Shown: one piece after another, positions 1-32,923 of the stretch
Position numbering within the stretch: the first letter of the stretch is position 1
Layout of the letters: each line of letters opens with the position of its first letter
Origin: a virus
Lineage: Duplodnaviria; Heunggongvirae; Uroviricota; Caudoviricetes
Virus record (IMG/VR): IMGVR_UViG_2623620501_000013
Length of the DNA stretch: 32,923 bases
Reading direction: 5' to 3' (one strand)
Notes under the pieces: model-generated
Told to the model about the DNA's origin: nothing
What the model saw: the letters and a program-made list of their open reading frames with translations, nothing else
Database searches by the model: none
Program-made: the position numbers and the translations under genes

Positions 1-1143
1 CAGCTGGAACTGGTGAGCAGTGCCCTGAAAGTGATCCGCACAGAACGGGTAAAAAAAGCCTGTACAAAATGTGACTGTATTGTTGAAGCACCGGCGCCGT
101 CCCGCCCGATAGAGCGTGGTATCGCGGGCCCCGGATTACTTGCCCGCGTGTTAACGGGAAAATACTGCGAACATCTGCCACTGTATCGTCAGAGTGAAAT
201 CTTTGCCCGCCAGGGTGTCGAACTGAGCCGGGCCTTACTCTCCAACTGGGTTGACGCGTGCTGCCAGTTAATGACACCGGTGAATGATGCCCTGTACCGT
301 TATGTAATGAACACCCGCAAGGTTCACACTGATGACACACCGGTAAAGGTACTGGCACCGGGTCAGAAAAAGGCGAAAACAGGGCGTATCTGGACGTATG
401 TCCGGGATGATCGCAATGTGGGTTCGTCATCTCCTCCAGCGGTCTGGTTCGCGTACTCGCCGAACCGGCAGGGGAAACACCCGGAGCAACACCTCCGCCC
501 CTTCCGGGGTATCCTGCAGGCGGATGCGTTCACAGGTTACGACAGGTTGTTCAGTGCAGAACGTGAAGGTGGTGCACTGACAGAAGTTGCGTGCTGGGCC
601 CATGCCCGGCGAAAAATCCACGATGTATACATCAGCAGCAAAAGTGCGACGGCAGAAGAAGCCCTGAAGCGAATCAGTGAACTGTACGCCATCGAGGATG
701 AAATACGGGGATTACCGGAGTCAGAGCGTCTTGCCGTCAGGCAGCAGCGAAGCAAAGTGTTACTGACGTCGCTGCATGAATGGATGGTGGAGAAGAATGG
801 TACGCTGTCGAAAAAATCCAGACTGGGCGAAGCGTTCAGCTATGTACTGAATCAGTGGGATGCCCTCTGTTATTACAGTGATGACGGTCTGGCGGAGGCG
901 GATAATAATGCTGCGGAAAGAGCGCTTCGTGCAGTCTGTCTCGGAAAGAAAAACTTTATGTTCTTTGGCAGCGATCACGGCGGCGAGCGTGGAGCACTGT
1001 TGTACGGGCTGATCGGCACCTGCCGTCTGAACGGTATCGATCCGGAAGCGTATCTGCGCCATATCCTGAGCGTACTGCCGGAATGGCCTTCCAACCGAGT
1101 TGACGAACTCCTGCCATGGAACGTAGTACTCACCAATAAATAA
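1..1143 (+). CDS. IS66-family transposase (TnpC-like), 5'-partial
   Basis: 376 aa visible; translation has the hallmark IS66 TnpC-like stretch (LPLYRQ..., TDDTPVKVL..., ILQADAFTGYD..., ADNNAAERALR). Reading frame is open to the window edge, so the N-terminus lies outside the window. Confidence 0.8.
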   Translation, partial: QLELVSSALKVIRTERVKKACTKCDCIVEAPAPSRPIERGIAGPGLLARVLTGKYCEHLPLYRQSEIFARQGVELSRALLSNWVDACCQLMTPVNDALYRYVMNTRKVHTDDTPVKVLAPGQKKAKTGRIWTYVRDDRNVGSSSPPAVWFAYSPNRQGKHPEQHLRPFRGILQADAFTGYDRLFSAEREGGALTEVACWAHARRKIHDVYISSKSATAEEALKRISELYAIEDEIRGLPESERLAVRQQRSKVLLTSLHEWMVEKNGTLSKKSRLGEAFSYVLNQWDALCYYSDDGLAEADNNAAERALRAVCLGKKNFMFFGSDHGGERGALLYGLIGTCRLNGIDPEAYLRHILSVLPEWPSNRVDELLPWNVVLTNK

Positions 1144-1175
1144 GCGTCAATACGGTGCTCCGTTGACGCTTACTT
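1..1175 (+). mobile_element. IS66-family insertion sequence, right-hand part (window starts inside the element)
   Basis: Transposase ORF is open from base 1 (in-frame QLELV upstream of the GTG at 13) and stops at 1143; it is followed by a 32-bp segment ending ...TTGACGCTTAC at 1175 (reverse complement GTAAGCG..., as I recall for IS66-family ends). Phage baseplate gene sequence resumes immediately after. Confidence 0.65.
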
Positions 1176-2175
1176 TTACATTATCTGACGGCATAATAAT
1201 TCGCCGGTCACTGACGCCAGAAATTAATGAAATCTGAGTTTCCAGTTGTGAAATAATTAATTCCTGCCCCGGCTCCAGCCGGTTCATAAAATCCGTGATA
1301 ACTTCAGTTATCTGTGGTTTTATCTGTTCAACAGTAAGACCACTGGTTTTTACCCGGACAACGAAATCAACGGCTTTTTTCGTCGGGGCCAGCACCATCG
1401 TGTCCTTCGCTGTCACCGGGCGGACTTCCTCAATATGTGCCAGCACGGCATTAATCAGTTCCTGCGAAGGGAGGTCATTGGCTGACGTAATGGCCACATC
1501 AACCGTCCCCAGTCCACGACGCAACGGCTCCACATACGCAGACGTAACGCCATCCACTTCCAGCGCCCAGCGTTTGTAATCATATTTATTACCGCCAGCG
1601 GGCGGCCTGCGCAGAATATCCAGATAACGCGCCAGCAGGTCGGCGTCGCTTTCCCTGTCCGTTCCGCCGGTCAGGGATTTAATCGTCACCGTGCTGTTGA
1701 TGCCTTCAGGTGGGCTGACCAGCGTTGCCGTCTGCGTCGTGGATGCATTCGTCTGTGCACCCGTGGCAGTGCTTTTTACCGTCACCTCTGCGCTGCCTTC
1801 ATCACCGACGGTGCAGTCTGCTGCGGTGGCCACGCTGACACCTTCACCACGAATTTCCGCACCGGCTGGCAGCGTCTTACCGGGTGTGCCGGTAATCACT
1901 GCCGGACCGGATGAGGCCGTTGCTTTTTTACGAAAAACATTGCGCGTGCGGCAGTGCAACTCCAGATATTCAGGGTCTGCCGTATCAGGAAACACCTGAC
2001 GGAGTATCCACCCCTGATGCATATACAGTCCGTCCGCCACGCCGGATACGGCATTTGCACGAATGCGGTAATCGCTGTCAGCACCGGTGTCGATGGTTTC
2101 GCCCGGCAGGGCGTTAGCGATATCACGTAGCTGGCGTTCTGTGTTTTCAGCAACGCCCGGAACAGGAAACGGCAT
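1147..2175 (-). pseudogene. Baseplate J-like protein (Mu gp47 position), 3' end replaced by IS66 sequence
   Basis: 342-aa ORF follows the gp46-like gene with TAATG overlap at 2175. The last 9 codons (VSVNGAPY-stop) are encoded by the IS terminal segment 1147-1175, so the native C-terminus is missing. Confidence 0.55.
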
Positions 2176-2525
2176 TACATAATCCTCACAGGGTGTTCAA
2201 ACGTCTGCGGTGTGCCCGCGTTATCCGTGACGGTGATTAACAGCAACAACCAGCCGCGCTGCCCCGGTTTTGTGTCAACGGTAATGGATTTTGCCCGCCC
2301 GTCATCGAGCAGGGGCTGAAGTGCCTGGCTGGCATACTGCGCCGCAAGCTTATGAACACGGGAAACGTCTTTTTCCCGCTTCAGCTCGTGCAGGCGTGAC
2401 CCCAGCGACGCATCCGCCCAGTAACTGCCAAGCGGCGTCGCCAGTCGCAGATAAACCGCGTTATGAAGGGTATAAATCCGACGGCGTTCGTAGTCGCCGG
2501 TTGCAGGTGAAATCGTCTGGTCCAT
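2175..2525 (-). CDS. Baseplate protein, Mu gp46-like (GPW/gp25-like)
   Basis: 116 aa, in the conserved position between the spike/V-like and J-like baseplate genes; start ATG at 2525. Confidence 0.55.
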   Translation of the reverse strand: MDQTISPATGDYERRRIYTLHNAVYLRLATPLGSYWADASLGSRLHELKREKDVSRVHKLAAQYASQALQPLLDDGRAKSITVDTKPGQRGWLLLLITVTDNAGTPQTFEHPVRIM

Positions 2526-2554: not shown

Positions 2555-2582
2555 GAATCAGGTGAGGGTGTTCAGCACTTAA
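2555..2582 (-). promoter_or_regulatory. Copy 3 of conserved late-operon motif (core GGGTGTTCAGCAC on + strand)
   Basis: Core 13-mer at 2566-2578 is identical to the copies at 14482-14494 and 22641-22653. It lies between the gp45-like stop (2579) and the gp46-like start (2525). Confidence 0.4.
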
Positions 2583-3232
2583 TTAACCGGCGTGTCAGAC
2601 ATGCCGTGTGGGGTTGGATGTTTGTGCGTTCCGATTTTAACGCCATTAATGGTGACGTCAACGGAGGTAATCACTCCACCCACATGGTTGATATTGCCTT
2701 CAAAGGTGGCAGTGTATCCCTTGCCCCCACTGATGGCCATGCCACCGTTGCCGGTGATTTTGCCTTCCACCGTCAGCCTGTCACTGGCTGTCAGTAACGG
2801 TGTCGTGAATGTGGCGTTCTCCTCTGCCTCAACCTCGTAGCGTTTGCATTTCACGCGATAAACGTCACATTCGGTTTCAATAACCCGTCCGCGCTTCAGT
2901 ACGATTTTCGCGCCTTCATCGGTATACAGGGCCACTTCCCCGGGGTTCAGTTCCGTCAGACGATATGCGCCGTGCTCTGTGGCCACCACGACAGTATGGG
3001 AGGTATTGCCGTTCAGCGGAACGGCAATACCCATTGAGCCGGGCGGCGGGGATGTGGTGAGGCCGTAATGCTGAAAATACTCCGCACCGTCCAGCTGTTC
3101 GCCAGCCAGCCCGTTAAGCTGAAGCAGCTGTACTTTGGTCGAACTGTCCACCGTACCGGTCACCACCCTGAATGCCTGGCGAACGGCGGCCAGTGCCTGC
3201 TGTACGCGTTGATTAACTTTGTCCCACATCAT
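2579..3232 (-). CDS. Baseplate assembly/spike protein V-like (Mu gp45 position)
   Basis: 217 aa; synteny downstream of the P-like tail gene; translation has a gpV-like N-terminal region. Confidence 0.6.
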   Translation of the reverse strand: MMWDKVNQRVQQALAAVRQAFRVVTGTVDSSTKVQLLQLNGLAGEQLDGAEYFQHYGLTTSPPPGSMGIAVPLNGNTSHTVVVATEHGAYRLTELNPGEVALYTDEGAKIVLKRGRVIETECDVYRVKCKRYEVEAEENATFTTPLLTASDRLTVEGKITGNGGMAISGGKGYTATFEGNINHVGGVITSVDVTINGVKIGTHKHPTPHGMSDTPVN

Positions 3233-5773: not shown

Positions 5774-8046
5774 CAGTAAGTTCCTCCCGTACCTCTGTTA
5801 CCGTCCTGAAGGTTGTATTTGTTCACTGCCTCCGCCACGACCTGACCATCGAGCACCAGTTGTGTGGTGAAATTAATGGGGCTGGCAGGTGGCCCCCAGT
5901 GCGTGAGGTATTCCGGCTGGGTGATGCGTCCGGGTTGAGTTGATGCCGGTTCAGGCTTTGTGTTTCCTGCGGCTTTGTTAACCTGCGCCGGTGATGGCAG
6001 GGCATCAGCTGCGGCTTTTTTCCTGTCTTCCTCCCAGCGCCTCAACCATTCTTCGTTTTCGGTGGAATAGCCTTCCCCAAACTGCCACCATGGCTGGTAT
6101 TTTTTGCGGGCGGCGTCGATTTCTTCCTGGGTGTATCGGGCGCGGATGCGTTTCCAGCGTTCTTCGCTTCCTTCGACGGCGGCGTCTTCCTCCGGGCTGG
6201 TTGCGGTGGCCAGTGCCGTAACAGTGCCACCTAAAGAAAGCAGGCCACCGGCAATACCGGGGAATTTAAATCCTTTGCCTTTTTTGACCGTGTTTTCAAT
6301 TACATCACCAACAACCTCGCCAGTCTTGCCACCGGGTTTACCCCCGGTCAGGATTTTGATCCCGGCCCATGTCAGAGCCGCTGCGGTCATCGCTTCAATC
6401 GCAGTTGTGGCACCCACCACCGCCGTGGTCAGCCCCGGAAACTTTTCACCCGCCCAGCTTATGGCATCGGCCACAGTACCGGACGCATCAGCCAGCTTTT
6501 TCATGCTGTCCATTTGTGAAAATTCAAGCGTGTTTTTAGCCTGTTCGGTTTTAAAATCATTGAGGCCGGATATGAATCTGAAATCAACATCCCCCGCGCG
6601 CTGGCCTTCCGGCAGGGTACGTTGCTGATTAATCGCGTCTTCAACCTTCTTACGGTATTCCGGGTTGTTACGGTAGGCTAACAACGCCATCAACGCCTGA
6701 CGGTCTGCAACCAGTTTCCCGACACCAAAGCCTTCAAGGAGTTTTGCCATCGAATCGTAAACAGCCGTCTGTTCACCTTTATCCCGGGCAGATGACAGTT
6801 TCTTTTGCAACTCCTGATAGCGTTTATCGCTGGCAACGATTTTATCTATCAGGCTGGAAAGCGCGTCTATCGGATCCAGCCCATGCTTGCGCGCTTCAGT
6901 CAGCGTACCTGAAAAATCAATCCCTTTACCGTTGTAATCAATGCTCTTTGCCGCAGTTTCAATATCATGGCTGGTCAGTTTAGCCAGCAGGTTAACCACG
7001 TTATTCCCTGCTTCATCACTGCTACCAGCCGTGATCGCGGCGGCTTCATTCAGCGCAAGAATCTTGACGAAATCATCCTTGCCTTTCATTCCCGCAGCTG
7101 ACGCAGATCCCATTTGTTGGGATAACCAGCGGGCCATATCGTTCAGTTCAAAGCTGCCTTCTTTTCCTGCCGCAATCGCCATATTCAGGACAGTGGAAAT
7201 ATCTTCATCCCGGAATCCAAAGGTCTTTTTGCCCTTAAGCATCACATTAGCCAGGTCTGTCGCTGATGCACCAGAAGCCGTGGCGTATTTCATCAGTTCA
7301 GGTAGCCACTTGCTGGCTGTGTCAAATGAAATACCGCCATCTTTCAGCAGGGCATCCAGTGTTTCGGCTGCATCCTCTTTTGTGCCGCCACCATAGGTCA
7401 CCGCGTTACGGATGCTGCTTTTCATCTGCTCAAGACCGGCTTTGCGCCCCTCCAGCCCGCCATCACTGAAGGCGGTATTGGCCATCATTGCCAGCTGGCG
7501 TTCGTAGCTCATCTGCTTTTTGACCGGCTGCGCCATAATGGCAGCACCTGCCGCGATACCACCACCTATTGTCACGGCATTCCCGCCAAATGCAGCCGCA
7601 CGCGCAAAACGCCCCCGTTCAGGGATAACAGGCGTTTTCGCCATCTTCATCTGAGCCTGAGTGACGCCATCCAGTTCACGCTTGAGTGCCCGGGCTTTTT
7701 CCCGGGTGGCCTGCATGGCGCGCTCCTGCTCCTGCGCAGATTCAAAACCGGCGCGGGCCAGACGGTTATAGCTGGCAACCGTCTGATAAATTTCACGCCG
7801 GATCTCGCGTTCTGCACGAATACCGAGCGTTTCCCGGGCACGGGCGGCACGCTGTATCTCTTTTGCCGCCTTTTTCGTGCTGTTAACGCTTTCCTGCCCG
7901 GTACGCGTCTGCTCTGCGCCTGCCTTCCGGGTTGCCTTTGTTACACCTTCGGTGGCTTTGATAACCTGTTTTTGTCCCTTTTCCAGAACCTGCGAGGCTT
8001 CGTCCTTCGCAGTCAGGGTCATGCCAACTTTGAAATTACCGGCCAT
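5773..8046 (-). CDS. Tail tape measure protein
   Basis: 757 aa, Ala/Gly/Lys-rich with long predicted helical regions; located between the tail chaperone and baseplate genes. Confidence 0.8.
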   Translation of the reverse strand: MAGNFKVGMTLTAKDEASQVLEKGQKQVIKATEGVTKATRKAGAEQTRTGQESVNSTKKAAKEIQRAARARETLGIRAEREIRREIYQTVASYNRLARAGFESAQEQERAMQATREKARALKRELDGVTQAQMKMAKTPVIPERGRFARAAAFGGNAVTIGGGIAAGAAIMAQPVKKQMSYERQLAMMANTAFSDGGLEGRKAGLEQMKSSIRNAVTYGGGTKEDAAETLDALLKDGGISFDTASKWLPELMKYATASGASATDLANVMLKGKKTFGFRDEDISTVLNMAIAAGKEGSFELNDMARWLSQQMGSASAAGMKGKDDFVKILALNEAAAITAGSSDEAGNNVVNLLAKLTSHDIETAAKSIDYNGKGIDFSGTLTEARKHGLDPIDALSSLIDKIVASDKRYQELQKKLSSARDKGEQTAVYDSMAKLLEGFGVGKLVADRQALMALLAYRNNPEYRKKVEDAINQQRTLPEGQRAGDVDFRFISGLNDFKTEQAKNTLEFSQMDSMKKLADASGTVADAISWAGEKFPGLTTAVVGATTAIEAMTAAALTWAGIKILTGGKPGGKTGEVVGDVIENTVKKGKGFKFPGIAGGLLSLGGTVTALATATSPEEDAAVEGSEERWKRIRARYTQEEIDAARKKYQPWWQFGEGYSTENEEWLRRWEEDRKKAAADALPSPAQVNKAAGNTKPEPASTQPGRITQPEYLTHWGPPASPINFTTQLVLDGQVVAEAVNKYNLQDGNRGTGGTY

Positions 8047-8208
8047 TTTTCTGTTTACCTTTTCTGCGTTTCTTTCTGAGGGATTTAAATGACTGGCGGG
8101 TGGTCTGTGAGGTGTCCTTTCTTCCTGAGCCGCCGCCGTTCAGCCTGTCAACGGCGGCAAGCCAGCCGTCCAGCTCGGGACGGCTCATGGTCATGATTTG
8201 TTCTTCGG

Positions 8209-17949: not shown

Positions 17950-19647
17950 TTACCATCCTCCTGAACCAAAACGCCCGCCACGGTCACGCCCGCTGCTGCG
18001 TGGGGTGTGTATCTGAAATTTTGCGCTGCGCGATACCGCCAGCGTCCACAGCATGTGCAGACAGTCCGGGCCATCATCGTGGTCGGCTTTGGGGTAGTGG
18101 CGCAGCTGGTCAATCAGCGTCTGATGTGCCGGACTGATGCGGATCAGGCCGTTGGCCATATGCGGCTGAAGGGACTCAATACGCAGCGCTTTATCCTCCA
18201 GCGGGATGACCGGCAGCGCCGGAACCGGCACGCCCAGCGCCGCCGAACGCTCAACCAGCACGGTACGCAGAAACTCCTGAAACTGGACGGACTCAAACGA
18301 CCAGCACAGACAGTGGTATTCCCGCTGATACTTAATCACGTCTTCGATAAGTTTGTTTGGCAGACGTCGGCGGATATCGGCTTCAACCACATCCAGAATG
18401 CCGGTAAAGCGGTTAAAGCCCCCCACGAGAATGGCCGACGGGTCGCGGTTTTTGTTTTTCTTCCCGAGACTGGGGTCAACAGCACCATAAAACACCCATT
18501 CATCAAGACGGTTAACCCAGAACTTAATGCAGCCCGCAAACAGCGCATCTTCACCGCTGACCGGGTCGTTCTGGTATTCAGAATCAAAGGTGTCATGACC
18601 GTCACGGACACGGATTTTCATCAGTGCCAGCAGGGGACGCGCCGCCCATGACACCACCGACCCGGCGAGCATGTCGGCTTCGTTCTGTCGGTAAAGTGCC
18701 TCTGCTGCTTCCGGCTGTTTGTTGCGGATGAGTTCTTCCCACTCGTCCCACAGCTTCATATTGGCAGGCCACTGAATGACGGCCTTAAAACGGGCCGTTT
18801 TCCACATCGGGTTATTGAGTGTGCGCGACAGTACGGAGTCGTAATGCAGGATGGTTCCGATATAAATAATATCTGTTTTACCACCAGCCTCGCCCAGCGG
18901 CATCACGGTTTTGGTGAGCCAGTCATGCAGCTTGTCGCGCTGCTCCGGGTTACGCACCATCTCGTCGTTCTCGATGTCGTCGAGGATAACCAGGTCAGGA
19001 CGGTACGGACCGTGGCGCAGACCACGCAGCTTTTTACCACTACCGGCAACGGTCACCTTGATATTGTTGGCCGTGACGATAGTCCCCATACGCCAGACGC
19101 GACCCTGCCCGCACACTTCCGGGAAATCGTTTTTTAAACGGGGGTTAAATTCCAGTTCAGCCTTGATGGCTTCCAGCATCGGATAAGCCTGGTCGATACT
19201 GTCCATAATGATGACCGGATAATGCTTAATGGCCCGGATAATGGTCCACAGGGTAAACAACTGAGTCACCAGCGTGGATTTTGCTTCACCACGGGGCGCG
19301 GCGATGGCGTCGTTCTCCGGGTCCGGGCTTGCCACAACCTGTGGCAGACGGCTGAACAGGTATTTATGCAGCTCGCTTTTTGCCGGGTTGCGGACGTAGT
19401 GCGGGAAATAGTTTTCGACAAAATAATCGTAGCCCGTCACCGGGTCACAGACTGCCGCCCGGCGGGCCTGTGTGGCCTGCGGGTTTACATCGAACCCCAG
19501 ACATTCAGCCTCGATGGTCTGGCGGAGGTTGGCGATGTACTCCTGCAGGCTTCTCTGAAACTCTTTAATGGAAAGTTTACGTTTTGCCACGTCACACCTG
19601 CGCTGCTTCTGCCTGCGCTTTTTCGATACGTGCGCAGGCGATATCAA
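17950..19647 (-). CDS. Terminase large subunit (Mu gp28-like)
   Basis: 565 aa from the first ATG. An alternative GTG at 19590 lies 1 nt after the methyltransferase stop and would give 546 aa. Confidence 0.8.
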   Translation of the reverse strand: MISPAHVSKKRRQKQRRCDVAKRKLSIKEFQRSLQEYIANLRQTIEAECLGFDVNPQATQARRAAVCDPVTGYDYFVENYFPHYVRNPAKSELHKYLFSRLPQVVASPDPENDAIAAPRGEAKSTLVTQLFTLWTIIRAIKHYPVIIMDSIDQAYPMLEAIKAELEFNPRLKNDFPEVCGQGRVWRMGTIVTANNIKVTVAGSGKKLRGLRHGPYRPDLVILDDIENDEMVRNPEQRDKLHDWLTKTVMPLGEAGGKTDIIYIGTILHYDSVLSRTLNNPMWKTARFKAVIQWPANMKLWDEWEELIRNKQPEAAEALYRQNEADMLAGSVVSWAARPLLALMKIRVRDGHDTFDSEYQNDPVSGEDALFAGCIKFWVNRLDEWVFYGAVDPSLGKKNKNRDPSAILVGGFNRFTGILDVVEADIRRRLPNKLIEDVIKYQREYHCLCWSFESVQFQEFLRTVLVERSAALGVPVPALPVIPLEDKALRIESLQPHMANGLIRISPAHQTLIDQLRHYPKADHDDGPDCLHMLWTLAVSRSAKFQIHTPRSSGRDRGGRFGSGGW

Positions 19648-20332
19648 AATACTGGTTAGTCATTTCAATGCCGGTAAACCGTCCGCCACGGGCAAGTACC
19701 GGGATGGCGGTGGTGCCGCTTCCCATAAACGGATCGAGAACGTGCGCATCCGGTGCCAGCGGTTTAACCAGCTCGGCCATCAGCTGAACCGGCTTTGCGG
19801 TCATGTGCAGTTTTTCGGACGGGACAACACGCTGCGTAATCACACCCGGGAACGGGCCACCGTGCGGACATTTGTCGAGTTTTCCGTTGCTGCCCCAGAC
19901 CACATACTCGGCCTGATGCCGGAAATAGCCGGTGTGTGGCGCACGGGAAGCCTGCGTTTTATCCCAGACAACAAGACCACGCCACAGCACACCACCGGCC
20001 TGAAAAACGTCGGTCATGGTGGGAAGCTGTCGCCAGTCACTGAACACCATGACATAACCACCGGGGCGCACAAGGCGGGCAGCCCCGGACATCCACAGGG
20101 TGCTCCAGTATGCCCAGCTGCGCTGGTCGCGGTTATCCCCGCTGAACTCGGCATACTGGGTGTGACCGACATACTTGTCCGAAGGGGCCATGCTGCGGTC
20201 TGATTTATGTGTGCCACCACTGCTGTAAGGCGGGTCGGTAATGACGGCATCAAAACGTTCGGATAACGCCGGCAGCACATCAAGAACATCACCGCAATAC
20301 AACGTTGCGTTACCAATAATCTGTTTTTGCAT
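19592..20332 (-). CDS. DNA methyltransferase, N6-adenine/N4-cytosine type (DPPY motif), orphan
   Basis: 246 aa with ...AVITDPPY... near the N-terminus and ...DPFMGSGTT... near the C-terminus (permuted motif order). No restriction endonuclease partner is adjacent. Confidence 0.8.
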   Translation of the reverse strand: MQKQIIGNATLYCGDVLDVLPALSERFDAVITDPPYSSGGTHKSDRSMAPSDKYVGHTQYAEFSGDNRDQRSWAYWSTLWMSGAARLVRPGGYVMVFSDWRQLPTMTDVFQAGGVLWRGLVVWDKTQASRAPHTGYFRHQAEYVVWGSNGKLDKCPHGGPFPGVITQRVVPSEKLHMTAKPVQLMAELVKPLAPDAHVLDPFMGSGTTAIPVLARGGRFTGIEMTNQYFDIACARIEKAQAEAAQV

Positions 20333-25303: not shown

Positions 25304-25473
25304 TTTGCTCTCCTGCGTTTCTTTGCTTCGCGTCGTGCAGCTGCAATACCGGTATGGCGGCGCTTTTGTGCCGGGATGATGTTGTCAGCCATCAGGACAT
25401 GTGGCTTTGCAATTAGCGCAGAAGCCCAAAAACGAGTCGGGTACGGTAACAAGCCGATACATGCCACACGCAT
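25300..25473 (-). CDS. Small basic hypothetical protein (57 aa, below the ORF-track cutoff)
   Basis: Translated by hand as MRVACIG...AAARREAKKRRRAK; TAATG overlap with the upstream gene stop and AAGGAGG upstream. Confidence 0.3.
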   Translation of the reverse strand: MRVACIGLLPYPTRFWASALIAKPHVLMADNIIPAQKRRHTGIAAARREAKKRRRAK

Positions 25474-26102
25474 TACTCACCTCCTTTGATGCGAATGCCA
25501 GCGGCGCGTGGCACATTAACTTCCACGATTCGTACTGTTGGTTTGTACATCTCAATCGCTGTCAGCCAGTCAGCTCCTGTCATGCGCTTTTCCGCATCGC
25601 CATTAGTCCACTGAACTGGTACACCAATAGCCTTCATCGCGATTTCTATTTCCCCGGCAATGGCGCTTTTTCCGCAACCAGTAAAACCAGAAACAACGAC
25701 AAGAACTTCGCCTTTGGCTGGTTTTATTTCCCGTGCTTCCAGTTCTGCTATGCGCTTCTCTGCGGCTTCCAGCTTGGCTTCTGCATCTTTGGCTCGCATC
25801 TGCCAGTTGATAGCGATGTCGATAACGCTGTTAGCACAACTGGACTCATTCTCTTCGGCAGCTTTAGCTTCAGAAAGCTCATCAAGCAGTCCAAGAACAA
25901 CAGTTGGCGTGGCGAGCGTGATAAAACGCATATTGCTCATATGCTCTTCATCGCTAACATCATCGCCAGCCTCGACCGCTGCCATGTGCTGAACATAGCC
26001 GCTATCACAGGTATTCCAGATTGCCCCTGCCTCGTGCCCCCATTCACCATGTAGCGCTTTTTCTGCCGCCTCACGCAGTGCCTGATAGTTAATTTTGCTC
26101 AC
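25473..26102 (-). CDS. Ea22-like protein with a C-terminal Walker A (P-loop) motif
   Basis: Probable GTG start at 26102 preceded by AGGAGG. N-terminal SKINYQALREAAEKAL... resembles ead/Ea22-like proteins as I recall; coiled-coil middle; C-terminal VLVVVSGFTGCGKS. Confidence 0.5.
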   Translation of the reverse strand: MSKINYQALREAAEKALHGEWGHEAGAIWNTCDSGYVQHMAAVEAGDDVSDEEHMSNMRFITLATPTVVLGLLDELSEAKAAEENESSCANSVIDIAINWQMRAKDAEAKLEAAEKRIAELEAREIKPAKGEVLVVVSGFTGCGKSAIAGEIEIAMKAIGVPVQWTNGDAEKRMTGADWLTAIEMYKPTVRIVEVNVPRAAGIRIKGGE

Positions 26103-26463
26103 GGGTTGCCTCCTGTTCATTTCCCTTGTTCAGTTTTCGTCTGCATACAGCGCAATCATCGGGGCTTTCGAAGCTGTCTGGTTCGCGTTCACCAGAGTAC
26201 ATCCATCTGCGGCAGATACTGGTTACTTCATTCTCGGCAAAATAATGATATTTTTTCGACCTGGCTGGTCTGCCCCATCCAGCTGTTCTCTCGCTCACAT
26301 CACGTTTTAATCCCCCCGCGCGGACCTCCTTTAGCTCCAGAAGGGCCAGCCTCAGAAGCGTCCACCACTCACTGTCTGCAACCGGCTCCATATCAAGCGC
26401 TCTGTCAGCATCAGCAATCAGTCTGGTCAGGCTCTTATCGCTTATTCTGGTTTGCTGGCTCAC
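26089..26463 (-). CDS. Hypothetical protein with zinc-ribbon-like Cys motif
   Basis: Probable GTG start at 26463 preceded by AGGAGG; C-terminal ...SICRRW...DDCAVCRRK...; the ORF is open from 26502. Confidence 0.45.
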   Translation of the reverse strand: MSQQTRISDKSLTRLIADADRALDMEPVADSEWWTLLRLALLELKEVRAGGLKRDVSERTAGWGRPARSKKYHYFAENEVTSICRRWMYSGEREPDSFESPDDCAVCRRKLNKGNEQEATREQN

Positions 26464-26749
26464 TGGTTGCCTCCTGTTCATTTTTTTCATTCCGGTACAC
26501 AAGAATTACGACATCTCCCCGGGTAATTACGCGTGCGGGGTCGCCCTGTTGCATATGGTCAATATCAAACGCGTCATTAAACGCATTTAGCGCCTTCGCG
26601 CGCTTGTCTTTACAACGACGTTTTTCACGCTGCTTAAAGAGCGAAGAAATCAACCACCTGAATGACATAAAAGTGATATAGCCATAACCGATAAGCGCCA
26701 GACCTGTATTCATGGCTACATCTATCGTTATCGTTTTATCAATGACCAT
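26435..26749 (-). CDS. Small membrane-anchored hypothetical protein
   Basis: 104 aa; N-terminal hydrophobic segment (LALIGYGYITFMSFRWLISSLF); ACAGGAGGC ribosome-binding site before the ATG at 26749. Confidence 0.45.
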   Translation of the reverse strand: MVIDKTITIDVAMNTGLALIGYGYITFMSFRWLISSLFKQREKRRCKDKRAKALNAFNDAFDIDHMQQGDPARVITRGDVVILVYRNEKNEQEATSEPANQNKR

Positions 26750-26969
26750 TGCCAGCCTCCTGTTTTGCCACTTTAAACGCCCGTAACATCGGGACCGTTT
26801 TACCGCTGATGACAGTGTTCATAACAATACCGATTCCACTGTGATGTAACGCTCCCGGTGCAACAAACAGCGCAGCATCTACAACTCTGAAGTAACGGTG
26901 GAACTCCCAGAACCAGCAAGAAATAGTGATAGTTGCGGTGACCCCATGGTCATAAAATTCAATTTTCAT
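26739..26969 (-). CDS. Hypothetical protein
   Basis: 76 aa; ATGA overlap with the upstream gene stop at 26966-26969. Confidence 0.4.
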   Translation of the reverse strand: MKIEFYDHGVTATITISCWFWEFHRYFRVVDAALFVAPGALHHSGIGIVMNTVISGKTVPMLRAFKVAKQEAGNGH

Positions 26970-27193
26970 TTACAGTTAAACCTTCTCTTATGACGTTCTA
27001 CGGCAGCCTTCATATTGTTGTGCACGGTTCTTTTAATAATCCGACGTCCCACACTGTCATAGAACCGCCACCGGGAAGCCCCCGGATATCCGGGGAACTC
27101 AACCACCGCGCTACCGTCATTCATCCTGTATTCGTGGCGTTCTCCGGGCGGCTGGTATATTGCTTCGGTAACACTGAGAAGTTTAAAAGCCAT
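26966..27193 (-). CDS. Hypothetical protein
   Basis: 75 aa; GGGGAGGG ribosome-binding site upstream of the ATG at 27193; 2-nt gap from the upstream gene. Confidence 0.4.
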   Translation of the reverse strand: MAFKLLSVTEAIYQPPGERHEYRMNDGSAVVEFPGYPGASRWRFYDSVGRRIIKRTVHNNMKAAVERHKRRFNCK

Positions 27194-27195
27194 CG

Positions 27196-27906
27196 TTACA
27201 CCCTCCCCAGTGCCAGCGGTCTGTTGCTCTGACCATTAACCCCCTGATGCAGTCTGGCGTTTTTCCCGGCGATAAAACCGGCAGTAGCGGCAAACTCTGC
27301 ACCCCGACACGCTTTAGCTGTGCGCATATCCCCGTCGCGCAGCCCCTTAGTGCTGTGCAGGTTCTTTCTGTAAAGCTCAAGGCGGCTTTTTTCTTCCGGG
27401 GAGACGTCATACACCGCAATGACATCACGGGCACCAAAGACCCAGCCTTCGCAGAACTGGTCGCCACGGGCTACCCGCGTGGACGGACCACAACGTTTGC
27501 AGTGTTTATCCTGATATTTCTTGCGCTCTGCCATCATCTGACGGGAAAGCACATCAAACGCGTAAGCCGCGATTTCCGGGCGGCTGTCAGAGCCATAAAA
27601 ACGCACGTGACGTTTGAGTGAACCAGAAGCCCGGTATTCGCCGGATATGTAACACTCGACACCGAAGGCTTTACAGACCAGGTCACACAGGATGTGCATA
27701 TAACGCGGCGGTGTACTGGCATCACTCGGCGCACCCGCGCTGGCAGCTTCCTGAATGTCGAACAATTCAGCGTCGTTTTCGCTGATGCCATGCTGGCGCA
27801 TATAAGCCTGGGCTTTTGCAATAGCGTTAGCGGCTTCTTCCGGGCTTGATGTTCCTCTGGCAAGGCGTAACAGTTTTTTGATTTTGGCAATGTATTTATC
27901 TTTCAT
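27196..27906 (-). CDS. DUF2786-like phage protein with Cys-rich C-terminal region
   Basis: 236 aa; N-terminal ...KIKKLLRLARGTSSPEEAANAIAKAQAYMRQHGI... matches the DUF2786 pattern as I recall; C-terminal region has several CxxC-type cysteines. Confidence 0.5.
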   Translation of the reverse strand: MKDKYIAKIKKLLRLARGTSSPEEAANAIAKAQAYMRQHGISENDAELFDIQEAASAGAPSDASTPPRYMHILCDLVCKAFGVECYISGEYRASGSLKRHVRFYGSDSRPEIAAYAFDVLSRQMMAERKKYQDKHCKRCGPSTRVARGDQFCEGWVFGARDVIAVYDVSPEEKSRLELYRKNLHSTKGLRDGDMRTAKACRGAEFAATAGFIAGKNARLHQGVNGQSNRPLALGRV

Positions 27907-28184
27907 GGTCGTCTGAACCTCAGCATCCTGAATTCTGAATTACGCAACTTCCGGCACGGCCTTCAGGAACGTGGGGAGTTCGTTCTGGCTGCGGCGCTGG
28001 ATGAACATCTGCTGTCGATTGAGAACTGGTCGCAAGACGATTAAAACAAACGATTGTCAGATTAATTTCGCGGGCGAATTTTTTTTGCTTAGCGATATTC
28101 ATAAATAAACTTCCTCAGATTCAGGCGTAAGCCAGCCCCGGCGGGTTTACGCCTGTTTTAAATAACAATTAAAAACAAATTAAA

Positions 28185-28376
28185 TTAATGCGGTGCTTTC
28201 AGTGTTTCGACTTTTACGAAATAAGGCTCGACATTAATTTCAACCACACAACCACATTTAAAATCTCTGACAGGTGAAACGGTTTTCACCACACGACCAC
28301 CACGCAACGCCGGATGTGCAGTGTGCATGAAGCGAGTCCCTACCGGATACTGCTTATTAAAGTTCTTCGCATTCAT
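28185..28376 (-). CDS. Hypothetical protein
   Basis: 63 aa; AAGGA site upstream of the ATG at 28376; overlaps the ANR-like gene end by 20 nt. Confidence 0.4.
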   Translation of the reverse strand: MNAKNFNKQYPVGTRFMHTAHPALRGGRVVKTVSPVRDFKCGCVVEINVEPYFVKVETLKAPH

Positions 28377-28590
28377 GGCGTGGCTTCCATCCTTTCAGGT
28401 GAGCATTAGCACAGAACTCGGCCCGGTGTTCCGCCCAGATGCGGCGCAGGGTGCTACACGGGCTTTGTGCTGCCTTACGCCACAGCTTTTCAGCCTCGGC
28501 ATAATCGCCGCGTTGTTCTGCTCTGGACGCGCCCAGCGAATACGCCGCGCAACTATTTCCGGCTCTGTACTCTTTGATATCCTGATGCAT
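28357..28590 (-). CDS. ANR-like small regulator (AraC negative regulator family candidate)
   Basis: Start ATG at 28590, 1 nt after the upstream stop (MHQDIKEYRAG...); contains ...RGDYAEAEKLWRKAAQ...RIWAEHRAEFCA..., resembling ANR-family small proteins as I recall. Confidence 0.45.
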   Translation of the reverse strand: MHQDIKEYRAGNSCAAYSLGASRAEQRGDYAEAEKLWRKAAQSPCSTLRRIWAEHRAEFCANAHLKGWKPRHECEEL

Positions 28591-28591
28591 G

Positions 28592-29236
28592 TTAAACCCC
28601 TGCAATATCAAGCGGGATTGCGCGGTATTCAGCAGAATCACCGACGCGCTCATACACGCGGATATAGCTTTTGCTGCCAATTACCTGGACGGCTTCACCA
28701 ATCAGTTTCATGGCGTTATCCCAGCGTTCCTCCGTAATATCGAGACGACGCAGAGCCAGAACGCGCCCGGTGTTAATGTTGCCTTCCTTGTCCGTGCTGA
28801 ATGCTTCACTGATGATGGCTTTAATTTCAGGGCGCGCTCCTTCCGTCCAGTCAGCCAGACAGTCATCAATCAGTGCCTTCGCGGTCTGAATGCGTTCATC
28901 AAGCGCGATACGGTCCTGCATGGCGCGCTGAATCTTGTAACGCCCGTCAAAGCTGTAAAGTGTGATATTCCCTTTTTTACCGCCTTTCACAGCGCCGTAT
29001 TTCTCCGCCGACAGGTCAATAAATGCCTGAATATCACCAAACGCACGCAGTTTCAGTTCACGCAGTGAGGCAGAGGCAGCAATCACCATCTCCACAAGCT
29101 CACCGACCAGCTGCTCACGGTCGCGGTCAATATCTTTGATAAGACTTTCAGGCGTCATCACACCACGGGCATCAACCCAGTAGCCTTCCTGCACTTTATT
29201 TTTTGTATATTGCTTAACTTTATTTTCAGTCGTCAT
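28592..29236 (-). CDS. DUF3164-like conserved Mu-like early-region protein
   Basis: 214 aa; size and position in the semi-essential early region; family assignment is from memory. Confidence 0.5.
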   Translation of the reverse strand: MTTENKVKQYTKNKVQEGYWVDARGVMTPESLIKDIDRDREQLVGELVEMVIAASASLRELKLRAFGDIQAFIDLSAEKYGAVKGGKKGNITLYSFDGRYKIQRAMQDRIALDERIQTAKALIDDCLADWTEGARPEIKAIISEAFSTDKEGNINTGRVLALRRLDITEERWDNAMKLIGEAVQVIGSKSYIRVYERVGDSAEYRAIPLDIAGV

Positions 29237-29265
29237 AATTAAATTACCTCAGTGATATTTACAGA

Positions 29266-29481
29266 TTAATGTGTGTTATGTGCGCGAGGCGCAACATTTT
29301 CAGAAAAAAGATTCACGCCGTTATAGTCATTTCTGAGCGTTTCCTTGATAGCATCATGTAATCTTGTTGCCACCTGAAACTCCTTTTCGGAAGCTCCGTC
29401 CTTCGAATAACTCCCCGTGGTCTGGGTTAAAACACAGCCTTTTTCATCGGTATAGATAATTACTTCTAACTTAACCGCCAT
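29266..29481 (-). CDS. Hypothetical early protein
   Basis: 71 aa ORF 12 nt downstream of the preceding small gene. Confidence 0.45.
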   Translation of the reverse strand: MAVKLEVIIYTDEKGCVLTQTTGSYSKDGASEKEFQVATRLHDAIKETLRNDYNGVNLFSENVAPRAHNTH

Positions 29482-29493
29482 TCTGATTTCCTC

Positions 29494-29733
29494 TTATTGC
29501 CATACGACGGTGCAGCCGTCGATACAGGACGTTTTCACCACGCGGCGCAGGCCGCTGAATGTCTGGATGATTTCCGTTACCGGCCATACAGGGCCGCCCA
29601 CGGGCGGGCAGGCATAAACCACAGGTAAACGGTGATGTTGCCCAGTTACGCGACCGCCGGTGGTGTGGATGGCCACACGGGCACGGGAACGGACGGCGTT
29701 AATGGTCTGCTTGTCCATCATCTTGTTCTCCAT
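29494..29733 (-). CDS. Hypothetical early protein coupled to the B-like gene (Mu kil position)
   Basis: 79 aa; its ATG overlaps the MuB-like stop (TGATG). Confidence 0.45.
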   Translation of the reverse strand: MENKMMDKQTINAVRSRARVAIHTTGGRVTGQHHRLPVVYACPPVGGPVWPVTEIIQTFSGLRRVVKTSCIDGCTVVWQ

Positions 29734-30626
29734 CAGTGAATTAACATTTCTGCGAATTTATCAATGGCCTGCACACTGACCGGTGCATCGCTGATATCAC
29801 AAATCCGGTACACACCGCGAGCCAGTTTGAACAGGCGGCGGGCATTACCCAGTGAGCGTGCGTAGAGCGCCTCGCTGATTTCCGGTTCTGCTGCTTCCGG
29901 CATCAGCCCGGTAGCTATCTGGTTAAAATCTTCCTGCGACAGCGTATCGCCCAGGTTAAGCGCCAGCGCCACACGGCTGTATAACTGGGCGAACTCACCG
30001 CGACGTCCCTTGAGGTTAATCAGAAGGCGTGGCATACCCGCCAGGACAATCCCGATACCCGCTTTGTCATGCAGACGGCGCAGAACCTCCAGTGCGCGAT
30101 AGGGGAGCAGTTCAGCCTCGTCCACCATCAGCAGGCGACCGGAATCACGCAGTTCTCGCACACATGCATCAATCAGTTCGTGGATATTGCCGCGAACTTT
30201 TACCCCCAGCTGGCGGCACAGCTCCTCAAGCAGTGTTCTGGCTGTATAGCCCGGGTCGGCTTCAATCAGGACCGCATCCCGGTTTCTGGCGGCGTATTCA
30301 CGCAGAATCATTGTTTTGCCAAGACCTGCCGCGCCATACAGTACGCAGATTTCACATTCCAGGTGAGCATAGGCCAACACCTCCAGTCCTTTGGCAGCCA
30401 TACCGGTGGCAACAAATTTCGCTTTAATACGGCGGCTGTTTTCCTTTTCCCGCTCACGGGTCACAAAGGCAGAAATGCGTTCTTCAATATCAGCCATATC
30501 GCCCTGATATTTACCCTGTAAATACTGGTTGATAACGGCGCTGCTACGACCAATAGCACGGGCGACGTGGGTTTGCGTATAGCCGCGACGGGCCATTACG
30601 TCATTTAATTGCGTAATTAAACTCAT
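29733..30626 (-). CDS. MuB-like transposition ATPase
   Basis: 297 aa; N-terminal helix-turn-helix-like region, Walker A GAAGLGKT, Walker B-like LLMVDEAE; directly downstream of the transposase. Confidence 0.8.
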   Translation of the reverse strand: MSLITQLNDVMARRGYTQTHVARAIGRSSAVINQYLQGKYQGDMADIEERISAFVTREREKENSRRIKAKFVATGMAAKGLEVLAYAHLECEICVLYGAAGLGKTMILREYAARNRDAVLIEADPGYTARTLLEELCRQLGVKVRGNIHELIDACVRELRDSGRLLMVDEAELLPYRALEVLRRLHDKAGIGIVLAGMPRLLINLKGRRGEFAQLYSRVALALNLGDTLSQEDFNQIATGLMPEAAEPEISEALYARSLGNARRLFKLARGVYRICDISDAPVSVQAIDKFAEMLIH

Positions 30627-30644
30627 AATTAAATACCTTTTAAA

Positions 30645-32687
30645 TTAACGGTTGTTTGTGCCGTTTTTCTTTAAATTGCGTTCGCGTTCAGATGCGAATA
30701 AATAAAGTTCTTCTTTTTCCTTTTTCTCCGGGCGTTCCAGTCCATATCCCAGATTAAAGTCAGGCTTCTGCGTAATGGCCGGGGTAAGCTCGCGTTTAGC
30801 CTCTTCGATTTTCTGCGTGGCCCGTGCAATGCGGCCCTTGACGCGTTTCTCCAGTTTTTGTTCGATAACTGGTTTAGCGAAGGCATCAACCTTGTTACCG
30901 TTCCAGATGGCATCGCAGATATAAGAGCCATCAGCCCGCCGGACAATGACGCTGTTTGCATCATGAATATCGTAACTGACCCTGACTTCATTCCCGTGCT
31001 CTGCGGCCAGATCATATGAGTAATAAATATTGTTGAATAACTGAATTTCCCCGCGAAATGTTTTGCGCGTCACTTCCGGCCTGAACATTTCATGCAGTTC
31101 TTCCGGCGACAGGAAATCAATTTCAACATTCTGCTCTTTTATCAGTTTCCGGCGATACGCTGCCGGGCTGTAATGCTCGCCATCCTCTTTGCGAGGAAGG
31201 CTGCTGTGTGGCCGGTTGTTATAGCGTCTGACCTCCAGCTCTATGGCTGCCATCAGTTGCTCAAAGGTAGGGATTTCATCCCTCGCCTTAACCTGCCGTT
31301 TTGTCAGCTCTTTCCCTTTGTGGGTGGCCTTAATGGCTGACTGCATAATCCGTTGCTGCATCATTACGGTTTCCTTGTCTGCATCCCTTGCGCAGTACGT
31401 TTGGAAACTCAGGGCCACGTCTTTGGGTATTTCCTTGTTAACCCTTTCAATCACCCCGCGCCCCTGCGGGTTACCTGGTATCCCCGTGTGATGTTCCACA
31501 CCCAGACGGGGCAGAATCCCGGTAATATCGGCATCAAGCACCAGGTTTTTTTCGCCGCCCCCGTTATCGGAGTAATAAATCAGCGGTATCCCGTGCTGTG
31601 CCATGCCGTAACGTAACGCATCAGCAACGGCTATCACGTTCTCCGACAGGGACAGTGACCAGCCCACAATAAAGCGTTGTCCTGCATCCATAACCAGCGT
31701 CACTTCTGGCCGGAAAATATTGCCGGTCAGGGGGTTAAACGCGGTCATTTTCATACAGTGACCATCCCCGACCCATACCGCATTAACCGGTAATGATGTC
31801 CACTCGCGCCGCACAAAGGGATTGAGCGAACGCCAGGCTGAACCTGTGGAGCGGAAACGCTCTTTAACAATCACCGGGACGCTGCTTAACACCCGTCTTA
31901 CTGCGTGAACTGAAGGCAGTGCCGCCAGCATTCCCGCATCGTTCGCGTGTTTTTCATGCCACCAGGCTGAAAACTCGCGATACGCATATTCAACGGTCGG
32001 GCGCTTCCATGAGCGATAGAACATAAAGAAATCGCTCAACCACCAGACCTGCTCCCACGGTGTTCCCTTATGATGACCGGGAGCCAGTAACGCCAGTAAC
32101 TGATTGGCATCACCGCGCGCCATCACCCAGCTGGAGTACCAACTATCCAGGCTGCCTGTGCTGACACCGGTTCGCTTTCCCTGACGTGCATTTGCAGTAT
32201 TAGCTGCTTCGATAATGCGGTCAGGTAACGCCCCCATGCGCACACCATCAACGATGTGCTTTAACGCGGCCTTCCTTGTCATTCCGGCGTATTCACGCAG
32301 TTTATGCACTTCAGTAGCCAGCAATATCCGCGCATCAGCGATGGCCTTTTGCTTGTCAGTCAGTGCCTGGACTTCGCGTAATGCCAGTTCCGGGCATTTG
32401 ACCATCACCTCCAGTTCATCGCGAACGGCGACGTTTTTAACTGCCTTCTGCTCAACCACGGCGGGCAGTTGCGTATCTTCCAGGACCTGATGGGTCAGGC
32501 GCTTACGTAAAACTTTCTGCGCTTCAGCGGGCAGGCAGTCGATGTGATACTCGAATGCTTTGGTGCCTTCACGCTTGCGCTTCCATTCCGGGTGCGTCTC
32601 TGTGATCCGATTGAGCGTCCAGCGCACCCCCTGAACTGTACCGGGCAAACCAGGAAGACCGGCCAGCTCATTGGCTGAATAAAACAT
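30645..32687 (-). CDS. MuA-like DDE transposase
   Basis: 680 aa; size, position after the Ner-like gene (TAATG overlap) and translation consistent with the Mu transposase family. Confidence 0.85.
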   Translation of the reverse strand: MFYSANELAGLPGLPGTVQGVRWTLNRITETHPEWKRKREGTKAFEYHIDCLPAEAQKVLRKRLTHQVLEDTQLPAVVEQKAVKNVAVRDELEVMVKCPELALREVQALTDKQKAIADARILLATEVHKLREYAGMTRKAALKHIVDGVRMGALPDRIIEAANTANARQGKRTGVSTGSLDSWYSSWVMARGDANQLLALLAPGHHKGTPWEQVWWLSDFFMFYRSWKRPTVEYAYREFSAWWHEKHANDAGMLAALPSVHAVRRVLSSVPVIVKERFRSTGSAWRSLNPFVRREWTSLPVNAVWVGDGHCMKMTAFNPLTGNIFRPEVTLVMDAGQRFIVGWSLSLSENVIAVADALRYGMAQHGIPLIYYSDNGGGEKNLVLDADITGILPRLGVEHHTGIPGNPQGRGVIERVNKEIPKDVALSFQTYCARDADKETVMMQQRIMQSAIKATHKGKELTKRQVKARDEIPTFEQLMAAIELEVRRYNNRPHSSLPRKEDGEHYSPAAYRRKLIKEQNVEIDFLSPEELHEMFRPEVTRKTFRGEIQLFNNIYYSYDLAAEHGNEVRVSYDIHDANSVIVRRADGSYICDAIWNGNKVDAFAKPVIEQKLEKRVKGRIARATQKIEEAKRELTPAITQKPDFNLGYGLERPEKKEKEELYLFASERERNLKKNGTNNR

Positions 32688-32923
32688 TACGCCGCCTTAC
32701 TGGCATACCGGCTTGGCCAGATCTCCGCAGGTTCCACACCAATAGCATCGGCTATGATGCGTTCATATTTAGGGCATGAGCGATACAGTGCATTTTTTAA
32801 AGAGTCTTTTTTTAGACCAGCGCGTTCAGAAAGTTCACGCAATGTAAAACCTTTGGTGTGCACAGCGGCAACGATGTACTCGCGGTGCCAGTCTTTGTTC
32901 ATTACTTCATTTCTAACCATCAT
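32687..32923 (-). CDS. ner: Ner-like DNA-binding regulator
   Basis: 78 aa containing ...KDWHR... and ...EIWPSRY..., matching Mu Ner-family proteins; the start is at the window edge, so upstream signals are not visible. Confidence 0.75.
   Translation of the reverse strand: MMVRNEVMNKDWHREYIVAAVHTKGFTLRELSERAGLKKDSLKNALYRSCPKYERIIADAIGVEPAEIWPSRYASKAA

Follow-up and report, generated by a model that had tools for sequence, protein, structure and literature searches.

The 32,923-nt stretch of phage DNA analysed here (the window) begins inside a transposase gene and passes directly from an insertion sequence into a gene for a baseplate protein of the J/gp47 type. Has an insertion sequence interrupted the tail module of a Mu-like prophage, and, if so, can that prophage still produce infective particles? 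We address these questions in turn: what the element is and where it stops, what it has done to J, whether the lost part of the protein matters, and what one would expect beyond the element.

The window opens in ISEc23 at the end of a draft contig

Base 1 of the window is the end of contig LAUC01000045.1 (140,291 bp, assembly GCA_001637785.1), where the locus is identical to the window. The parent project, LAUC00000000, is the genome of E. coli RiKo 2351/09, a phylogroup B1, ST88 strain from the faeces of a healthy cow, assembled with SPAdes from 101-bp paired Illumina reads into 252 contigs (PMC4966475). The truncation of the insertion sequence at base 1 is a draft-assembly break in a repeat, and it is because this base is the contig end that the window opens inside tnpC.

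Positions 1–1173 (plus strand) are the right-hand 1173 bp of ISEc23, an IS66-family element, corresponding to IS positions 1360–2532 by identity to reference copies: the last 1173 bp of the 2532-bp copy L002 (1642–4173) equal window 1–1173 with no mismatch. Copies that are 100% identical to window 1–1175 are annotated as 'IS66-like element ISEc23 family transposase', and the matches of this segment, like those of the J-like ORF, are beyond chance. At least 80% of window 1–1175 is contained in 2569 of the 5426 complete E. coli genomes, with a median of three and a maximum of 45 matching places per genome. Two full copies, L002 and L003, are 2532 bp long, have GTAAGCG...CGCTTAC ends and carry the genes tnpA-tnpB-tnpC; their terminal ...CGCTTAC directly adjoins 8-bp direct repeats (TTAACAAG and TTCCATAC). 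The RiKo 2351/09 copy shares with the reference 100% of the nucleotides over 1173 bp, including the 3′ part of the transposase gene and the CGCTTAC end. Unlike the reference copies, with their tnpA, tnpB and 8-bp repeats, it is represented in the window by its right part only, 46% of the element.

The full tnpC gene has 537 codons. Pfam and the reference alignment place codons 158–537 of this IS66-family DDE transposase gene at 1–1143 (plus strand), with the TAA stop at 1141–1143; window base 1, IS position 1360, falls in codon 158, within the IS66 transposase gene, as the first-pass annotation had it. The 376-aa ORF at 13–1143 (plus strand) matches PF03050 (DDE_Tnp_IS66, 4.9e-98) and PF13817 (IS66 C-terminal element, 2.4e-16) over window 13–1140. 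The right terminal inverted repeat of ISEc23 occupies 1148–1173 (plus strand), its reverse complement, GTAAGCGTCAACGGAGCACCGTATTG, standing against GTAAGCGTAAACTGACCGCCGTATG at the left end of the reference. This right repeat lies within the window; the left end of the element falls past the contig end.

ISEc23 truncates the J/gp47 baseplate gene

The insertion sequence stops with base 1173, and phage DNA begins at 1174. BLAST homology to IS-free prophages begins at 1173 because the C at that position matches the phage by chance. An IS66-family element within a J-like gene had been proposed from the sequence, with a junction at about 1175 and nine final codons contributed by the element. The element proves to be ISEc23 at 100% identity and the gene a member of PF04865 (Baseplate_J, 4.4e-67); the junction stands and is now placed at 1173/1174, and the IS-coded ending of J also stands, with the count corrected to eight codons (1150–1173) followed by a TGA stop (1147–1149).

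The product is a chimeric, truncated gene of 342 aa at 1147–2175 (minus strand). Codons 1–334 (2175–1174) are phage-derived and all identical to those of an intact 359-aa gene, while codons 335–342 (1173–1150, VSVNGAPY) and the stop at 1149–1147 are encoded by ISEc23. In IS-free prophages the intact allele is 1080 nt long and encodes 359 aa (L001 8924–10003). The insertion site lies 77 nt ahead of the natural J stop, and the 25 C-terminal residues of the intact protein, AVVNESTWEWLRPGSIDIQPFPRES, are replaced by the eight IS-coded ones. Two plus-strand ORFs, at 1295–1579 and 1691–1999, were rejected as genes since they are contained entirely in the well-supported, conserved J. The first eight phage bases after the IS end, TTTTACAT (1174–1181, plus strand; L001 9002–9009), are the predicted right-hand copy of an 8-bp target-site duplication.

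A short-read SPAdes draft of 101-bp paired ends in 252 contigs, with a contig that ends within a repeat, is the setting in which a phage contig might be mis-joined to a repeat, making the J–IS junction a chimera of assembly. The join, however, coincides with the final base of the element, which a random mis-join would not do, and the identical chimeric protein (OAC31504.1 / WP_063610839.1) is found on Logan contigs besides the RiKo 2351/09 assembly; these contigs were probably re-assembled from its reads. The exact terminus and the recurrence of the protein together make an assembly chimera unlikely, to the point that we give it almost no weight. That ISEc23 has inserted in the 3′ end of J/gp47 and truncated it we regard as practically certain.

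In the assembly collection the chimeric protein is present on two contigs only, and the remaining listed members of its cluster are all 359 aa long. The J–IS junction occurs in none of the 5426 complete E. coli genomes, none of which has ISEc23 at this gp47 site in a Mu-like prophage. We regard the insertion as specific to this strain and as probably recent. The in-window junction also has no match in IMG/VR or in the GTDB representative genomes, collections from which the source assembly is absent, so that these negatives carry little weight.

The lost C-terminus is conserved within the lineage

The first-pass annotation had allowed that proteins of this family might normally end where the phage-derived part of J does. 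Homologue lengths and the conservation of the lost residues reject a family natively ending at residue 334. Among the best 120 homologues, a few fragments and fusions excepted, full-length proteins have 352–362 aa and cover 94–100% of the 359-aa query, so the family does not normally stop at the insertion point. In an alignment of 33 homologues with identity down to 49%, W344 never varies, and conservation reaches 90% or more at E343, G348 and I350; the consensus within the lost 25 residues reads E-W-L-R-x-G-x-I-x-V. The end motif E-W-L-x-x-G-x-I-x-V is absent from the RiKo 2351/09 protein, which is a truncated family member.

J is homologous by sequence and fold to Mu gp47 and to Baseplate_J and T4 gp6-like proteins, and it occupies the same slot after gp45 and gp46. 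Comparison with the solved Mu gp47 (PDB 9ki1, 9ki1_H) gives 9e-44 in phmmer and, for an intact-length model, 5e-30 in Foldseek; further matches are T4 gp6-type wedge proteins and, for the C-terminal domain of J, the isolated one of PA0618 (5ces_A). Identity between J and Mu gp47 is about 30%; the RiKo 2351/09 protein differs further in lacking the 25 C-terminal residues found in its lineage and in carrying eight foreign ones. Mu gp47 is wedge protein 2, of which each wedge contains two copies; it forms a trifurcation unit with gp48 and a handshake between adjoining wedges (PMC11915804). For the structural context of the lost segment we used the AlphaFold model of an intact protein 98% identical to J (mean pLDDT 84.5). 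Here residues 342–354 form the terminal β-strand segment of the last domain, with pLDDT blocks of 92 and 77.

How much the protein suffers from this loss decides in part whether the insertion might be functionally mild, that is, whether truncated gp47 assembles, transcription crosses or leaves the element and some infective particles are made, with ISEc23 possibly carried as cargo. The Pfam Baseplate_J match, which spans residues 69–313, is unaltered by the truncation. What is lost is only 25 of 359 residues, located beyond the part of the protein that phmmer can align to Mu gp47; this alignment ends at residue 335, and the lost tail is therefore the least conserved part among distant relatives. 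Judged from these alignments, its conservation is that of a lineage and not universal. Against a harmless loss stand the invariant and near-invariant residues that the segment retains in homologues down to 49% identity, and its modelled place as a high-confidence strand of the last domain.

The prophage is otherwise intact within the window

Directly upstream of J and in the same operon lies a gp46-like baseplate wedge gene (2175–2525, minus strand; PF07409 GP46, 8.1e-19), the product of which is identical to the protein of a relative. It is preceded by a gp45/V-like gene (2579–3232, minus strand) and, further upstream on the J strand, by genes for a gp44/P-like protein, a DNA-circularisation protein (gp43-like) and a tape measure. 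Assignments taken from precomputed Pfam hits on identical genes and from the annotation of the E. coli 160-11H1 prophage (L005) give a Mu-like gene set in Mu order: PF02316 and PF09299 (MuA), AAA ATPase, Mor, GemA, gpT, Gp36, Gp37, sheath, DNA_circ_N, Gp45 and GP46. The right limit of the window, 32923, is the start codon of a ner-like gene and the left limit is the insertion sequence, both phage ends lying outside.

The closest comparisons are the prophages of enteropathogenic E. coli (EPEC) E2348/69 and of 160-11H1, which have the same gene order, 99.8–100% nucleotide identity over the tail region (1173–2600: 100% for 160-11H1 and 99.8% for E2348/69) and 99.9% over the whole window. The alignment to 160-11H1 is gapless at 99.89% identity over 1173–25501 and again gapless at 99.96% over 26061–32923, with a diverging mosaic segment at 25502–26060. 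The other 48 mapped CDS are all free of internal stops, with at most three substitutions each. This set includes the MuA-like transposase, the MuB-like ATPase, Mor, the lysis genes, terminase, portal, head, sheath, tape measure and gp43–gp46. The J lesion is the sole defect visible within the window. That all other genes are intact implies an insertion that is recent or has not been followed by decay, and this would also suit a mild effect of the insertion.

Both relatives differ from RiKo 2351/09 in having an unbroken J of 359 aa, with gp48 and fibre genes behind it, and in their chromosomal sites: the E2348/69 prophage is at eutC and that of 160-11H1 between yfcC and pta, a variation in site that a transposable phage should show. 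In the assembly collection, 3024 blocks index the identical MuA protein, and among the matches listed its neighbours are different host genes at each of six loci, all in other hosts. On this distribution, the phage is widespread, transposable and recently mobile.

What is expected on the far side of ISEc23

In the IS-free relatives, gp48 (PF10076, 2.1e-30) begins 3 nt past the J stop, and the order J, gp48, fibre is kept with spacings of 3 nt or 1 nt. The order behind J in E2348/69 is gp48, a gene for a 249-aa fibre-like protein, a fibre-assembly gene, a second fibre-assembly gene on the opposite strand, a gp53-like fibre C-terminus and, beside eutC, the phage end. A 19-bp inverted pair, AAACGTTGGTTTGGGAGAA / TTCTCCCAAACCAAGGTTT (L006 6141–6159 and 8043–8061), encloses about 1.9 kb; we take it to resemble the crossover sites (gix/cix-like) of Gin/Cin-type invertible segments. 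The fibre/invertible-type region of the relatives has no annotated invertase gene; in 160-11H1 it is in partial decay and contains frameshifted fibre-assembly pseudogenes. The gp48-like protein, tail fibres, invertible segment and right end that the first-pass annotation had expected downstream are thus all recognisable in IS-free relatives, the invertible-type segment being there without an invertase gene. In RiKo 2351/09, the second copy of the duplication, gp48, the fibre genes and the right end of the phage would lie leftward, past the contig end.

Assuming a simple insertion, the far side of the element would carry the 8-bp duplication TTTTACAT and the remaining prophage. Its predicted sequence is ...CAACTGCTTTTACAT then GTAAGCGTAAACTG, which puts the left junction at ...ATTGACAACTGCTTTTACAT / GTAAGCGTAAACTG... 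(also written ...CATTGACAACTGCTTTTACAT / GTAAGCGTAAACTGACC...), with gp48 further left. No callable ORF crosses this predicted junction, the open stretch in the J frame being 38 aa and without a start codon. Searched as ATTGACAACTGCTTTTACAT plus GTAAGCGTAAACTGACCGCC, it was unmatched in metagenome and genome contig collections, which exclude the source assembly and are for that reason a weak test. A gp48 search for the far-side contig returned only cluster representatives, all different from the gp48 sequence of the relative.

Since the contig ends in the element and its left junction is out of view, ISEc23 might instead form the border of a deletion or inversion mediated by the element, in which case the far side would be something other than residual J, gp48, the fibre genes and the right end. 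The right end of the prophage would then be lost or displaced, and neither tails nor transposition would be possible. Multiple copies of ISEc23 (the median of three and up to 45 places per genome given above) would provide substrates for such recombination, and the predicted left junction went unmatched, albeit in collections that exclude the source assembly. The break falls exactly at the terminal nucleotide of the element, as in plain transposition, but IS-mediated rearrangements break at this nucleotide just as well. Nothing was found that positively points to a rearrangement. Simple insertion is the commoner outcome of the two. We consider a rearrangement distinctly unlikely and proceed with simple insertion.

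Consequences for tail assembly

The mechanism that we propose is transposition of one ISEc23 copy into the final 77 bp of gp47/J in the Mu-like prophage of RiKo 2351/09. Truncated gp47 would probably be unable to build a normal baseplate. In addition, 2.5 kb of insertion sequence, read in antisense and untranslated, would stand between the late promoter and gp48 and the fibre and chaperone genes, and expression of these genes would probably be poor. Upon induction, the prophage would make heads and few or no infective tailed particles. Mu V, W and R (gp46–48) are essential tail genes.

The orientation of the element bears on the second of these effects. tnpC is oriented rightwards, toward J, and the phage late operon runs opposite, making the IS genes convergent with the phage late genes. 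On the late-transcript strand, a stable hairpin formed from the IS end and followed by UUUAUU (1138–1175, minus strand) is a possible terminator; its RNA fold centroid is −19.8 kcal/mol, with a z-score of −2.46. A simple consensus terminator scan does not call this IS-end hairpin, and consensus promoter and terminator scans over 1–2600 gave nothing beyond the shuffled expectation. Given the tight J–gp48–fibre operon, the 2.5 kb of antisense sequence and the −19.8 kcal/mol hairpin, we expect strong polarity on gp48 and the fibre genes.

A milder outcome would gain from read-through of the element or from an outward promoter in it, either of which could still express the downstream genes. Those genes, however, are located behind 2.5 kb of antisense, untranslated sequence that starts with the hairpin. 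Packaging poses a further difficulty. The slack of Mu-type headful packaging is only about 2 kb, and the right end of the phage would tend to be cut off once 2.5 kb had been inserted. Considering this together with the conserved strand lost from gp47, we hold a functionally mild insertion to be unlikely. Less likely still is that the IS-carrying prophage is viable and spreads ISEc23 as cargo, or that the element marks a rearrangement stranding a locked-in prophage that lacks its right end; if the former were true, a transposable phage would package ISEc23 and move it between hosts.

With simple insertion and its consequences as the preferred reading, the loss of the conserved, structured gp47 C-terminus and the splitting of the operon make the prophage probably tail-defective, and production of infective particles has likely been lost. 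The statement as a whole, insertion and truncation together with the explanation by a tail defect, we likewise judge likely. The interpretation offered by the first-pass annotation, of a tail-defective prophage separated from its downstream functions, is therewith partly supported: its structural part is borne out, and the tail defect and the neighbourhood beyond the element are plausible.

After induction the phage would presumably still replicate and the cell still lyse, for which reason we would not call this domestication. There is a parallel in phage Mu, of which derivatives, the X mutants, are inactivated by IS1 insertions. There, too, a resident host insertion sequence knocks out one phage function and leaves the rest intact. 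The IS1 insertions of the X mutants lie in the early region and block killing, whereas that of RiKo 2351/09 lies in a late tail gene, and its induction presumably still kills.

Both ISEc23 and this type of prophage were already known, and insertion sequences in prophage genes are commonplace. The RiKo 2351/09 locus is a clean, probably recent and strain-specific case of a resident insertion sequence that would disable a prophage; it has little import beyond annotation and raises no new question. Within annotation, databases list the IS-truncated chimera WP_063610839.1 under the ordinary name 'baseplate J/gp47 family protein', and when prophage completeness is called for RiKo 2351/09, this Mu-like prophage, intact in other respects, should be regarded as probably tail-defective.

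The prophage belongs to a widespread Mu-like lineage

From 1174 to 32923 the window holds a Mu-like transposable phage that is widespread in E. coli. The index of the assembly collection lists a MuA protein identical to that of the window in 3024 blocks, and at each of the six other host loci displayed (L007-L012) it lies next to a different host flank. Megablast of the prophage tail region against the INPHARED phage collection gave no match, and the closest phage homologue of the J protein, from Klebsiella phage ST405-OXA48phi1.1, is only 49.9% identical; the lineage is apparently known as prophage only.

Relative to the IS-free prophage of E. coli 160-11H1, the sole stretch of the window without alignment is 25502-26060. 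Here the early region carries a mosaic replacement, located within or adjoining an Ead/Ea22-like gene (25473-26120; PF13935, 4.5e-15), and its 160-11H1 counterpart carries an ead-like gene and an XF1762-family gene. The late region of the window prophage encodes a 246-aa N6/N4 DNA methyltransferase (19592-20332, minus strand; PF01555, 6.5e-23), flanked by a DUF1804 gene and the large terminase, whereas mom of Mu lies at the right end.

ISEc23 insertion and the chimeric J protein

The IS-truncated J chimera (1147-2175) corresponds to WP_063610839.1 / OAC31504.1, publicly named just 'baseplate J/gp47 family protein', and the database names carry no flag for the IS-derived last 8 residues. The ISEc23 target duplications, seen or predicted, are TTTTACAT, TTAACAAG and TTCCATAC (window 1174-1181 and the two full reference copies, L002 and L003); all three are AT-rich and begin with TT, but three duplications are not enough to establish a target preference.

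The tail-fibre region in IS-free relatives

In the relative prophage of EPEC E2348/69 (L006), a 19-bp inverted pair, TTCTCCCAAACCAAGGTTT (6141-6159 and 8043-8061), which we take to be similar to the Gin/Cin/Pin crossover sites, brackets a segment of ~1.9 kb in the tail-fibre region of the lineage, in which the genes for an alternative fibre C-terminus and chaperone run in the opposite direction. The annotation shows no invertase gene adjoining this segment, and its inversion, if any, would therefore depend on an invertase provided in trans. In the strain carrying the window, the bracketed segment would be expected to fall beyond base 1.

The fibre region of the IS-free 160-11H1 prophage (L001 6200-8060) is already decayed: it contains many long perfect inverted repeats of up to 91 nt and frameshifted fibre-assembly pseudogenes, and the expected place of the fibre gene is occupied by a 212-aa ORF annotated as 'integrase', for which Pfam gave no match. 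Since this decay occurred without an IS, some members of the lineage are fibre-defective independently of any IS.
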